Source: a virus
Lineage: Duplodnaviria; Heunggongvirae; Uroviricota; Caudoviricetes
DNA length: 4,469 nucleotides
Reading direction: 5' to 3' (one strand)
IMG/VR virus record: IMGVR_UViG_2675903650_000020
Coordinates: 1-4,469 of that record
Within the stretch, counting starts at the first letter, position 1, and every line of letters starts with the position of its first letter. Shown piece by piece: positions 161 through 4,469 of the stretch. A program made the translations under genes and the position numbers. The notes beneath the pieces are model-generated. The model was not told the origin of the DNA. It ran no database searches and saw only the letters and a list, made by a program, of their open reading frames with translations.

Positions 161-2122
161 TCATGCCGCGGCATCCGCGTTGTTCACTTCCACCTTCACA
201 CTGTCAATCAGCAGCGTATATGTCGCCGCCTTTAATATGCCTGTCAGTTGCAGTTTGTCCGCCGCCCCTGATGCCGGAGATTTCACCAGTGTGAACGGCG
301 TCCCCCGTTTCTCATCCAGTACCGGCGTCACCTGAATGCTGTTGTTTCCGGCAAACTCAAAAGCCAGTGTGTGCCATCCGTTATCAAAGACCCCGAACGT
401 ATCCAGCTTCGCATTCGGCTTCTTGTGGTACATCGCGTTCAGGTTCGTCGCATCCGTCTGCAGGAAGAAGGACATCAGCATGTCGTTGCCTTCCTCTGCC
501 AGCGTCACTCCCTCCGGCAGGGACGACAACTGCCAGTAAATGCCCATGGCAAACCGATTCGGCACCAGTGAACCCGGCAACTTAAACCGTACGCTCACAC
601 GTCCCCCCTTCTTCAGTAACTCCACTCCCTGTCCGGCTGCATCATGCTCCAGAAACCAGATGTGGTTTTCCGGTTTATTCAGTTGCAGGGCCTTACCTCC
701 CGTAGCCCCCGCATCACTGACCACCGCTTCAGCAATGTTTTTGTTAACATTGTCTCCGCTCGCCGGTTTGTGATAATAGCGCCAGCCCTGTGATGCCAGG
801 TCTTCGCCGGACGCCAGCAGACTCATCAGGGTTCGGTTACTGACCGGGGCTTCCGGCTCTCTCTCCGTACCTTCACCGGAAGGTCCGGTGGGCTTCACCG
901 TATCAGGCTGTTTTCCGGTAATGAATTCAGCGGTTCTCCCGGCATGCACAAGAATCGCCGTTGCCAGACGGTCGGAAATAATCCCACGACGTGCCCATGA
1001 TCCAAAATGCGTTTTACGGTCGGCCGTCGTCCAGGTTTTGGCGTCCGTTCGACCACCGGCTCCGTAATACCCAATATCCGCAACATCCGGATCTTCTGAC
1101 GGCTCGTTGGTACCCACATTTCGCCCGTTTTCATCCGTCATAAACGGCACAAAGAAGATTTTTTTTGCGGATTTCGTCTTGTATGCACCATACACCGCAT
1201 CGTATTGCGAAGAATAAGTCTGCTTCCAGTAGTAGGTCGTGTCGCCACAAATCCAGGGAACCGATGACGGAGAGCCCCCGAGACACTGACCTCCGAATTC
1301 CGACAGGTCAGAACGATATTTTTCCACCATGGAATCAAACAGCCCCGGCTGAGTGGCGTATGCACCCTGTTTCAAATCAAACTCGCCCTGCATCCAGACC
1401 ACTGCAAGCAGAATATTTTTAGGGTTGGCCTTCAGTGCGGCCTGAGTACGGGTAAGCAGGTCCTTGTACAGTGGCTTATCTACACCCCAACGTGCCGAGG
1501 TCTCGCTTGCGCCGGTGGATTCGCTGAAGGTACCTTCATCGCCCGCCAAAAATGCAGAACCACCACGGCAGCACGGAACCAGAAGAATACCGGCATTCGC
1601 CGGAATAAACGGCAACAATTTCTTCGCGATATGTAATCCCTGCCCCACGCATCCATACTGAGCTGCGCTGGCTTTCGGGTGTGAAAACTTACTCAAATCC
1701 TGAACATCATGCAGGCAGTGGTCCGCAGGAATAATGTCATTGTAGTTACAGGACGCACCACCCGGCGTGACAGTGCTGCGACGCGCCAGCTGTTTAATAC
1801 GCGGGTCCGGACGGTCATATGTCTCCGGCAGCGGAAGCCCTTCACCATACGCCATACCGTTTGACTGCCCGGCCAGGGCAACAACAAAGTAATACTCCGG
1901 TTCGCTGGTGGTGCTGATAACTGTGCCTTCTCCATCCGACGGCTTCACCACCACAGGTGTGGTGACATCACCTTCCGCCGCAATGGCCTGCATCAGGGTA
2001 TAGGGCGTGATGGCCACCGGACTGCCAAATGGCTGCCACCCCTCCTTCAGTTTTTGTGTCAGTCGTTTCGCAAGGTCTGACGGCGATGCCGCCCTGACAA
2101 CATCATAGTGTTTAAATGCCAT
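161..2122 (-). CDS. nanS: Prophage NanS-p-type sialate (9-O-acetyl-neuraminate) O-acetylesterase: DUF1737-like N-terminus, SGNH/SASA esterase core, C-terminal putative carbohydrate-binding domain
   Basis: Long ORF with TGA stop at 161-163. N-terminal segment KHYDVVRAASPSDLAKRLTQKLKEGWQPFGSPVAITPY matches what I recall of DUF1737. Catalytic-serine block FVVALAGQSNGMAYGEG (GQSN) is typical of SGNH/SASA sialate O-acetylesterases. A Pro/Glu-rich linker (PTGPSGEGTEREPEAP) is followed by a ~230-residue C-terminal domain. The track ORF starts at ATG 2137 (MVERTMAFK...); I prefer ATG 2122 (MAFKHYD...) because GGTGGAAAG lies 4-9 nt upstream, whereas 2137 has no SD. Confidence 0.85.
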   Translation of the reverse strand: MAFKHYDVVRAASPSDLAKRLTQKLKEGWQPFGSPVAITPYTLMQAIAAEGDVTTPVVVKPSDGEGTVISTTSEPEYYFVVALAGQSNGMAYGEGLPLPETYDRPDPRIKQLARRSTVTPGGASCNYNDIIPADHCLHDVQDLSKFSHPKASAAQYGCVGQGLHIAKKLLPFIPANAGILLVPCCRGGSAFLAGDEGTFSESTGASETSARWGVDKPLYKDLLTRTQAALKANPKNILLAVVWMQGEFDLKQGAYATQPGLFDSMVEKYRSDLSEFGGQCLGGSPSSVPWICGDTTYYWKQTYSSQYDAVYGAYKTKSAKKIFFVPFMTDENGRNVGTNEPSEDPDVADIGYYGAGGRTDAKTWTTADRKTHFGSWARRGIISDRLATAILVHAGRTAEFITGKQPDTVKPTGPSGEGTEREPEAPVSNRTLMSLLASGEDLASQGWRYYHKPASGDNVNKNIAEAVVSDAGATGGKALQLNKPENHIWFLEHDAAGQGVELLKKGGRVSVRFKLPGSLVPNRFAMGIYWQLSSLPEGVTLAEEGNDMLMSFFLQTDATNLNAMYHKKPNAKLDTFGVFDNGWHTLAFEFAGNNSIQVTPVLDEKRGTPFTLVKSPASGAADKLQLTGILKAATYTLLIDSVKVEVNNADAAA

Positions 2123-2315
2123 GGTTCTTTCCACCATCTGAAAAATAATTCTTTAAAATACCTGACATGTAATACAGAAAAAACACAAAACCATACCTTA
2201 AATAAAAACCTCATCATCAAGCAGATATGCATGGGTAAACTACAAGACGAGATATAAACCACCCTGCATTTAAATAAACAATAAACAACATCAGAAAAAT
2301 AATTCTGCTCTATGG

Positions 2316-2342
2316 TTTACATTCAAAAATATCATTTATACT
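2316..2342 (+). promoter_or_regulatory. Candidate sigma70-type promoter for the 111-codon ORF (-35 TTTACA 2316-2321, -10 TATACT 2337-2342)
   Basis: Both hexamers match consensus at 5 of 6 positions, but the spacer is only 15 nt (suboptimal). Located about 40 nt upstream of ATG 2383. Purely a sequence-pattern call. Confidence 0.25.
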
Positions 2343-2382
2343 TTTCAGAACATCACCAGCAAGACATAAACAAGGAAACTAA

Positions 2383-2718
2383 ATGAAGTGGATTGTGATT
2401 GATACAGTTATCCAGCCATCATGCGGAATATCTTTTTCAGTCATATGGAGTAAAATAAAATTAATAATCTGGTATCAATCGGATGCTTTCTTACCTCCTG
2501 AAAGTATATTTACACTGACTCACACAGGTATCATGCTCAATAACAAAGTGCTACCTGTAACCATTTACAACGTAGTACCATTCAATAAAACATTCTGGAA
2601 TTTAATCAAAAACAGCCAGGAATGCCCTACAAATACAGATAACGTATTGAATGAATGCTTTAATAACCGTTGCACTCTGCAAATATGTCCTTATGGACTA
2701 AAACAACAAAGTCCATAA
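2383..2718 (+). CDS. Hypothetical small protein (111 aa), opposite strand to the phage late genes, inside the AT-rich insert; function unknown
   Basis: ATG 2383 is preceded by AAGGAA (2372-2377) with 5-nt spacing. 111 open codons in strongly AT-rich DNA, where stop codons should be frequent. The ORF ends inside a perfect 12-bp hairpin (2688-2721). I recognise no homolog. The protein is Ile/Asn-rich with 6 Cys. Confidence 0.45.
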
Positions 2719-2721
2719 GGA
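2688..2721 (+). other. Perfect 12-bp inverted repeat (TCCTTATGGACT / AGTCCATAAGGA) with 10-nt loop, spanning the stop codon of the 111-codon ORF
   Basis: Arms at 2688-2699 and 2710-2721 are exact reverse complements. The following + strand sequence GTTTACTCA is only weakly U-rich, so this is either a weak terminator or an RNA-stability or regulatory hairpin. Confidence 0.3.
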
Positions 2722-2734
2722 GTTTACTCACATC

Positions 2735-2773
2735 TGACAAAATCAATATAAACAGCCCCTCCGGAGAGGGGCT
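2735..2773 (-). terminator. Second minus-strand hairpin (8-bp stem AGCCCCTC/GAGGGGCT, 4-nt loop) followed by a moderately U-rich tract
   Basis: Perfect GC-rich stem 2754-2761 / 2766-2773. On the minus strand it is followed by GUUUAUAUUGAUUUUG (2753-2738). The U tract is interrupted, so it is weaker than the terminator at 2970-2995. Confidence 0.35.
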
Positions 2774-2969
2774 GGAGAGTGGCGCTATGTGCCATTGCAT
2801 GGTGCCGGGTGCCTCCCGGTGAATTCAGTACCAGCACCTGAATCCGCGATTATCCCATATACCTACTCGCTGATTGCCCCTCCGCACAGGGGGATTCACC
2901 ATGCCAGTTTCTTTTAACAAATTCCCCGCAAAACAGACAACTGTCAACCGTCTGAATTGTGAGACATTT

Positions 2970-2995
2970 AAAAAAAAGGCCCGCCGAAGCGAGCC
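2970..2995 (-). terminator. Rho-independent terminator downstream of the tRNA array (minus-strand RNA: GGCUCGC-UUCG-GCGGGCC + U8)
   Basis: Stem 2978-2984 / 2989-2995 has 6 pairs and one internal mismatch, with a UUCG tetraloop. It is followed on the minus strand by eight U (+ strand A-run 2970-2977). It lies 12 nt past the 3' end of the last tRNA. Confidence 0.7.
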
Positions 2996-3007
2996 TGATA
3001 ATAAATC

Positions 3008-3082
3008 TGGAGCGGGTAGCAGGAATCGAACCCGCATCATCAGACTGGAAGGCTGAGGTAATAGCCATTATACGGTACCCGC
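3008..3082 (-). tRNA. tRNA-Gly (anticodon UCC)-like, 75 nt, encoded CCA
   Basis: Manual fold of the reverse complement gives a 7-bp acceptor stem GCGGGTA/TACCCGC, T-arm GCGGG-TTCGATT-CCTGC, anticodon loop CTTCCAG (UCC), discriminator U and CCA. It closely resembles host glyT as I recall it, with a compensatory acceptor change and a C:U mismatch at the 31:39 closing pair. Confidence 0.8.
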
Positions 3083-3085
3083 ATA

Positions 3086-3161
3086 TGGTGCCGGCTACCG
3101 GAATCGAACTGGCGACCTGATGATTACAAGTCAGTTGCTCTACCATTGGAGCTAAACCAGC
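3086..3161 (-). tRNA. tRNA-Thr (anticodon UGU)-like, 76 nt, structurally degenerate (possible pseudo-tRNA)
   Basis: Acceptor stem GCTGGTT/AGCCGGC (two G.U pairs), D-arm GCTC-CAATGGTA-GAGC, anticodon loop CTTGTAA (UGU), variable loop AGGTC, T-loop TTCGATT, discriminator A and CCA. The overall layout aligns with E. coli tRNA-Thr, but the anticodon stem (ACTGA/TCATC) pairs at only 3 of 5 positions and the T-stem has one A:C mismatch. Confidence 0.6.
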
Positions 3162-3166
3162 ATGTT

Positions 3167-3241
3167 TGGCGGGACAGCGTGGACTCGAACCACGATAAGA
3201 AGGTTAACAGCCTTCCGTAATGACCTTTATACGACTGACCC
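3167..3241 (-). tRNA. tRNA-Asn (anticodon GUU)-like, 75 nt, encoded CCA
   Basis: Perfect anticodon stem GAAGG/CCTTC with loop CTGTTAA (GUU), T-arm CGTGG-TTCGAGT-CCACG, discriminator G and CCA, U8 present. The T-loop, anticodon loop and discriminator all match host tRNA-Asn as I recall it. The acceptor stem GGGTCAG/CTGTCCC has one U:U mismatch at 4:68. Confidence 0.8.
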
Positions 3242-3289
3242 AAATAAAAAAAGCCACCGTTGCAACTTAAGAGTCACTAACGGCAGCTT

Positions 3290-3326
3290 ATGCCAATAGT
3301 GTTGCTCATTTGCTCAATGATGTCAA
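3290..3326 (-). promoter_or_regulatory. Candidate late promoter (pR'-equivalent) between Q and the tRNA array; perfect -35 TTGACA at 3326..3321 (minus strand), -10 element unclear
   Basis: The Q stop codon to first tRNA gap is only about 90 nt and contains a consensus TTGACA. The best -10 candidates 17-20 nt downstream (AACACT / ACTATT) are weak. The position matches where lambdoid phages place pR' and the Q-utilisation site, which is established knowledge rather than something read from this sequence. Confidence 0.3.
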
Positions 3327-3332
3327 CACGTT

Positions 3333-3821
3333 CTATGCTACATGTTTAATTTTCTCTACACGTTTCCGGTTTTTAAACGCACTATCCAGAACCGGGTAAA
3401 TCATAAACAACGAGGCATTAAGGATTTCGTCAACTTCCCGTCGACAGGTTGCGAGCGATGGTTTTTGAATGCGCCCGCCGCCCCGGCATAACATCTTGCG
3501 AGGTCTTGCGACGCGATGATAGTAAGATGCAATAGCGTGCCTGGAAGAACCATGAGCGTAGTAGCTGAGGAGGATGCCGAAGGCTTTCTTGTCAATGTAC
3601 ATGACGGAATCGACGACCTGAGAAATCAACATTCCATCATCATCATTGCACATTGGTCTTGTCATAACTCTTCCCGGCTCTACGCTCTCCATGAACTTCG
3701 CTATTACGCTGCTCATGCGCTTTTCCAGACGACCTGAATAAACCCATGCGCCCCACAGTTCAAGCCAGCCATTCAGCCAATCGTGCTGTTCTTTGGTGAG
3801 GTTTAGTTCTCTTATGCCCAT
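3333..3821 (-). CDS. Q: Phage late-gene antitermination protein Q (Q21/QuuD-like family)
   Basis: 162-aa ORF with SD AGGGAG 7 nt upstream of ATG 3821. Motifs LELWGAW, SSVIAKF, TRPMCNDDDGMLI and LLSYYAHG parallel those I recall in DLP12 QuuD (LERWGAW, SSIAAGF, SRPQCCDDDAMII, LLVDYYVVG). Its position immediately downstream of ninG and upstream of the tRNAs and late genes fits the lambdoid layout. Confidence 0.85.
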   Translation of the reverse strand: MGIRELNLTKEQHDWLNGWLELWGAWVYSGRLEKRMSSVIAKFMESVEPGRVMTRPMCNDDDGMLISQVVDSVMYIDKKAFGILLSYYAHGSSRHAIASYYHRVARPRKMLCRGGGRIQKPSLATCRREVDEILNASLFMIYPVLDSAFKNRKRVEKIKHVA

Positions 3822-3864
3822 GCGACTTCTCCCTTGTTATCTGGAATGGTTTTTACTGAGAGCG

Positions 3865-4443
3865 TCATGTGGCCTCACTTCTGCTGTTTCTCAGATCTTT
3901 GAGTTTCTGTTGGTACTCTGCCTTGATGGCCCTGCACTCTTCGACAGTCCAGCGATGGCGGTTATGGTTTGATTCGATTTCATCTACTGCTTCCTGCCCG
4001 ATGCGGCTAATCAGTTCGACGCGATACGGAACGAGATTTCCGCTTTTGTGCTGGTTGCACACCACGCATTGCTTGTGAATATTGCGTTCATCAAATCGGA
4101 GTTGAGGTGCCGCAGCAGTTGTCCGGTAATGCCCGGCATCCCACTGAGCAGACGTGAGCGTTCCGCACGAGATACATGGTAAGTCGCGGTCTCTTTCTCT
4201 GATGAAGGCGTTTACGGCTTGTTGGGCTTGTTTAATCCAGTAACTGCGGGGCTTTAAGGCGAGTTTTCGAATCTTAAGTTTATCTTTCTGTTTCTGCTCC
4301 TCTCGTCGTCGTTTCTTCTCTGCTGCTTTTTCCGCTTTTTCTCGTTCTTTGCTTCGTCGTTCGAGTGCTAATTGAGTTCCGTGTTCCGGGCAGCACCACC
4401 ACTGATTTGAGAATGCCGGGTGAAACCATTCCTTGCATATTTG
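3865..4443 (-). CDS. ninG: NinG/Rap-family protein, C-terminal ~190 codons; the reading frame meets an in-frame TGA at 4444-4446 and has no canonical start codon before codon ~127, so the gene is N-terminally disrupted or continues beyond the window
   Basis: Translation of the minus strand gives ...[188 protein letters not shown], which is near-identical to what I recall of lambda NinG. The 66-aa track ORF 3865..4065 is just the part after the first in-frame GTG. Confidence 0.8.
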
Positions 4444-4469
4444 TCAACGACGGATGAAAAGTGATCCAC

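Follow-up and report, generated by a model that had tools for sequence, protein, structure and literature searches.

The window analysed here, a stretch of 4,469 nt, carries a fragment of ninG (rap) upstream of an intact gene for the antiterminator Q, and beyond Q lie two tRNA genes, a short ORF and a long esterase gene. Q (162 aa; 3333..3821, minus strand) matches Pfam PF06530 with E = 3.6e-24, starts 44 nt downstream of the ninG stop codon and has a good ribosome-binding site. In the assembly collection, 476 blocks list exactly this Q protein, and looking it up in public assemblies yielded the complete chromosome, the uninterrupted prophage and the draft contigs that are compared with the window below. 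In related loci the genes are arranged in the order NinB-Dam-NinE-...-NinG-Q, and the position of ninG upstream of Q in the window fits this order. Here ninG is followed directly by Q across 3822-3864, whereas an O55:H7 prophage (L001) and a prophage of E. coli 14EC007 (L003) have a Ser/Thr phosphatase gene between the two, a difference that illustrates the mosaic nature of the nin region.

Genes for tRNA-Asn (GTT; 3167-3241) and tRNA-Gly (TCC; 3008-3082) lie just downstream of Q, both on the minus strand, and the O55:H7 prophage has the same tRNA pair after its own Q. Stx-converting phages carry tRNAs together with stx at this post-Q site; the window has no stx genes. Between the tRNAs and the esterase gene, an ORF of 111 aa (2383-2718, plus strand) has no Pfam hit at E <= 0.001 in our own scan. 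Matching RefSeq records call its product 'anti-adapter protein IraM', and the assembly collection assigns it to PF11183 PmrD; it has the look of a moron-type gene of the late-promoter region. The remaining ORF, of 658 aa (653 aa as called in assemblies; 161-2137, minus strand), contains DUF1737, SASA carbohydrate-esterase and DUF6645 domains, and it sits where Stx and lambdoid prophages have NanS-p-type sialate O-acetylesterases. No record among the complete RefSeq E. coli genomes covers >=80% of the whole window, and the combination of modules is therefore uncommon.

The reading frame of ninG is open over most of its length and broken near its start. The minus-strand frame that ends ...RNSRSEAT* at the stop codon TGA 3867..3865 contains 192 open codons from 4443, and an internal TGA stands immediately before them at 4446..4444. 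A preliminary description of this DNA had pointed to this TGA, to a NinG frame that stays open between 4443 and the stop at 3865, and to the lack of ATG, GTG or TTG until about codon 127. Translation and a codon-by-codon check confirmed each of these observations: the first such codon in frame after the internal TGA is GTG at 4065, which is codon 127 counted from 4443 and the point at which the mechanical ORF list begins its ORF, and ahead of it ATA, ATT and ATC are the only start-like codons. The assignment to NinG was likewise correct, as the fragment matches PF05766 with 286 bits (cutoff 25.4) and E = 1.7e-85 over profile positions 12-192 of 193. The ninG (rap) 3′ fragment itself occupies 3865..4440 (minus strand) and comprises codons 11-201 plus the stop, without a start codon or a Shine-Dalgarno sequence. 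As an ORF it is incomplete, with no initiation codon and only part of the N-terminal Cys-rich region.

Homology to ninG begins abruptly at 4442/4441. We aligned ninG homologues from >1,000 E. coli genomes and >300 phage records, at 95-99% identity, and every alignment starts at query base 28, which is window 4442; in these genomes and phage records the intact homologues bear the annotation 'recombination protein NinG'. Upstream of 4440 the sequence reads ...CCGTCGTTGACAA, and a 30-nt query (4469..4440) has 100% matches in 5,811 E. coli records, at up to 26 places per genome, on chromosomes as well as plasmids and beside unrelated genes. Such a spread of matches is typical of the end of a mobile element. 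Records with annotation place the match ~38 nt past the stop codon of istB in 'IS21-like element IS100 / IS100kyp', which encodes istA-istB. Moreover, all 28 nt are identical to the right ends of the IS100 copies in a plasmid (L002), in the 14EC007 prophage and in a complete chromosome, CP061272.1 (L004). The ends of IS100 are of the TG...CA type, with TGTCACGAACGG... on the left and ...CGTCGTTGACA on the right; the copies in L002 and L003 each measure 1954 bp, run from TGTCACGAACGG... to ...CCGTCGTTGACA and are flanked by 5-bp target duplications. Because of the multi-copy 100% matches, the annotated IS100 copies and the ends in L002 and L003, we assign window 4469..4442 to the right end of IS100.

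Thus the window is cut inside an IS21-family element, of which it retains the last 28 nt of the right terminal inverted repeat (4442..4469, minus strand; GTGGATCACTTTTCATCCGTCGTTGACA). The right-hand copy of the target-site duplication, AATATG, follows at 4436..4441 (minus strand) and corresponds to ninG nt 30-35. The in-frame TGA (4444..4446, minus strand) belongs to TTGACA (4447..4442), the terminal hexamer of the IS100 repeat; it did not arise by mutation of a ninG codon. The ninG frame seems to run back into non-homologous sequence and to meet this TGA because the window ends 28 nt inside the repeat. We also considered a recoded TGA, either a selenocysteine codon or a site of programmed readthrough, and rejected it, since the 5′ side is non-coding IS100 terminal repeat without NinG homology.

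The window itself holds only 28 nt of IS100, and the presence of the full element is inferred from the near-identical chromosome CP061272.1. This complete chromosome of 4.98 Mb is 99.955% identical to the whole window, junction included. Its order is the ninG ATG + 35 nt, then IS100 (istA-istB, in the same direction as ninG), then the remaining ninG, and it reads ...TTAATGGCTAAACCAGCGCGAAGGAAATGCAAAATATG / TGTCACGAACGG...(IS100)...CGTCGTTGACA / AATATGCAAGGAATGG..., with a left junction of ...GCAAAATATG/TGTCACG and a right junction of ...GTTGACA/AATATGCAAGG. A 6-bp direct repeat, AATATG, is present on both sides of the element, and no target sequence is lost. IstB (PF01695) is called just upstream of the junction on the same strand, and the element aligns along its length with annotated IS100 copies, although its istA is frameshifted in that assembly. 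This copy spans 1959 bp (L004 7422-9380) as against 1954 bp in L002 and L003; relative to those copies, its istA is thrown out of frame by +9/-1 indels and 3 nt are deleted from its istB region, differences that may be long-read or assembly errors or may be real decay. At about L004 7355, just upstream, the antirepressor gene has a 1-nt deletion relative to another locus, L005, which again may be an assembly error or decay. The 5′ stub of ninG reads into the element and encodes a 35-aa peptide, MAKPARRKCKICVTNGAIVIHTQRLKSDPGGNLLS.

An uninterrupted form of the gene is found in a prophage (L006) that matches the window over 4442 nt with 2 substitutions. This prophage has the empty site GCAAAATATGCAAGG and an intact NinG of 201 aa, and L005 also carries the empty site. 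The intact NinG covers PF05766 positions 1-192, and positions 1-11 are missing from the window fragment; the protein of the fragment is identical to it from I11 to the end. What took place is a simple insertion: IS100 entered after ninG nt 35, the 6 bp AATATG were duplicated and no bases were removed. The preliminary description was right to propose an N-terminal lesion and a pseudogene. The mechanism that it offered, a small deletion plus a nonsense codon, has to be replaced: nothing was deleted, and IS100 was inserted. It had further suggested that upstream sequence might restore an ATG-initiated full-length frame, but when the window is extended via L004 the ATG and codons 1-11 lie ~1.96 kb away, beyond the IS.

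We conclude, with a probability of roughly 95%, that the window comes from an E. coli-type lambdoid prophage, of which it covers the Q-proximal part, and that the ninG (rap) of this prophage is interrupted by IS100. The proposed course of events is that IS100 (IS21 family, istA-istB) transposed into ninG after nucleotide 35 and in doing so duplicated the 6 bp AATATG; the 3′ piece of ninG was thereby cut off from its ATG and ribosome-binding site, presumably with loss of the Rap junction-specific endonuclease as the result. The element resembles IS100/IS100kyp, which encodes the transposase IstA and the helper ATPase IstB, in its identical 28-nt right repeat and TG...CA ends, in the full-length copy between the ninG halves of L004 and in its short target duplication. 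It differs in that the window contains 28 nt only, in that the duplication at ninG in L004 is 6 bp whereas it is 5 bp at the two other copies examined, and in the indels within istA and istB of L004. In L003, a different prophage, IS100 interrupts ninB (1879-4248) and is flanked by a 5-bp duplication, AAACC. Insertions of IS100 into the lambdoid nin region have therefore occurred independently at least twice.

What does the insertion mean for NinG? Rap is predicted to consist of an N-terminal zinc finger, an HTH-like domain and a C-terminal His-Me finger nuclease (PMC5714182). In L004, the ATG and C9, the first Cys of the N-terminal CxxC, sit across the IS from the rest of the gene. The window fragment shares with lambda NinG/Rap, a structure-specific endonuclease that acts on Holliday junctions and D-loops, a strong match to PF05766 and the same location within the nin region, immediately before Q, and it is 100% identical to the intact 201-aa prophage NinG from residue 11. 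Unlike lambda NinG/Rap, it is without codons 1-10 and has neither a start codon nor a ribosome-binding site; its zinc-finger CxxC is split. Judged by its sequence, the window NinG is a pseudogene fragment and not a functional member of the family. The downstream piece (codons 11-201) is not expected to be translated because the ATG, the ribosome-binding site and the first CxxC cysteine have been lost, and with the start codon missing the junction-specific endonuclease activity of Rap has probably been lost as well. The phage need not be dead as a consequence. The nin region is dispensable for growth of lambda, as the nin5 deletion demonstrates, and for this reason we infer that the consequences for the phage would be only mild.

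Any polar or promoter effect of the insertion would fall mainly on Q. With the gene order of L004, transcription from pR must now cross ~2 kb of IS100 in the same orientation to reach Q. A simple terminator scan of the IS in L004 detected no convincing terminator on the strand so transcribed; its only find was a weak plus-strand terminator-like site in istA, which is not above the expectation from shuffled sequence.

Of the other readings, the one that survives best is that the truncated ninG is still expressed, either by non-canonical initiation, for example at ATA 4440, or from an IS100 fusion promoter, and that this yields a shortened Rap, altered transcription of Q or both. At the right ends of IS21-family elements lies an outward -35 from which junction or fusion promoters can arise (PMC9330008). 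The IS100 end resembles these in having a perfect consensus -35, TTGACA (4447..4442), at the tip of the IS and directed at ninG and Q, and a TG at 4428..4427 stands just before the hexamer 16 nt past this -35. In contrast to the known fusion promoters, however, the ninG target offers no acceptable -10 at the correct spacing. The candidates at spacings of 16, 17 and 18 nt (TTTCAC, TTCACC and TCACCC) are poor, with 3, 2 and 1 of 6 consensus matches, respectively, and all lack the key A2 and T6; moreover, a promoter scan of 3700-4469 returned no minus-strand promoter that uses the IS -35. A further point against this reading is that the fragment is missing the first cysteine of the zinc finger predicted at the N-terminus. 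The unusual initiation that the preliminary description had entertained finds no footing either: there is no Shine-Dalgarno sequence and no ATG, GTG or TTG before codon 127, and the TGA belongs to the IS terminus. We consider continued expression very unlikely. Activation by the IS is not predicted from the sequence, and a weak TG-extended promoter is unlikely. That TTGACA and the TG-preceded TTTCAC, 16 nt into ninG, act as a low-level fusion promoter and transcribe Q from the repressed prophage is extremely doubtful; if they did, such a promoter would alter expression of the late region (esterase and lysis genes) or the stability of the prophage in this lineage.

Could the junction instead be an artefact of assembly, in which 28 nt of IS were misjoined at a contig end and the real ninG is intact? 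Like many draft contigs, the window breaks off within a repeat, and among 5,426 complete RefSeq E. coli genomes no record covers >=80% of a 65-nt query spanning the junction. Against such an artefact, the finished chromosome L004, which lies outside the RefSeq complete-genome collection searched, has the two halves of ninG on either side of a complete element; the 6-bp duplication is clean and the target sequence is fully preserved. In addition, no fewer than seven further draft contigs (L009-L015) break at this very base, each having window 4440 as its first nucleotide; several NCBI draft contigs of this kind are 100% identical to the window. Contig starts at 4440 are as expected of short-read assemblies that break at a repeat, which suggests that the window itself is a repeat-bounded draft contig. 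We regard a misjoin as extremely improbable. The weakest reading is a point lesion in an otherwise unbroken ninG, due either to a nonsense codon accompanied by a small deletion or to miscalled bases at 4444-4446. It can appeal to a frame that is otherwise intact and to an 'RR' before the stop that is superficially like the ARRK of NinG and had been taken for a NinG motif, but it has next to no probability: this 'RR' is translated IS100 terminal repeat, the 28 consecutive bases upstream of 4441 are similar to no ninG and identical to the right end of IS100, which also disposes of the sequencing error that the preliminary description had raised, the same junction recurs in a complete chromosome and at contig breaks of several independent assemblies, and L004 together with the empty site of L006 refutes it.

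The interruption of ninG by IS100 is thus the reading that we retain, and the allele has a narrow distribution. The exact 31-nt junction is absent from the GTDB representative genomes and from the JGI metagenomes. Together with its absence from the complete RefSeq E. coli genomes, this marks the junction as a rare allele. The ninG::IS100 junction appears to be confined to a small lineage and is probably clonal.

ninG::IS100 is an ordinary transposon-made pseudogene, the product of a kind of event that is already known, and it raises no new biological question. Its main value lies in annotation: what appears to be recoding or an odd start is a transposon boundary at the end of a contig, and ninG should therefore be annotated here as an IS-interrupted pseudogene. 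Beyond this, the insertion marks a small E. coli sublineage and adds one more case of prophage decay by insertion sequences.
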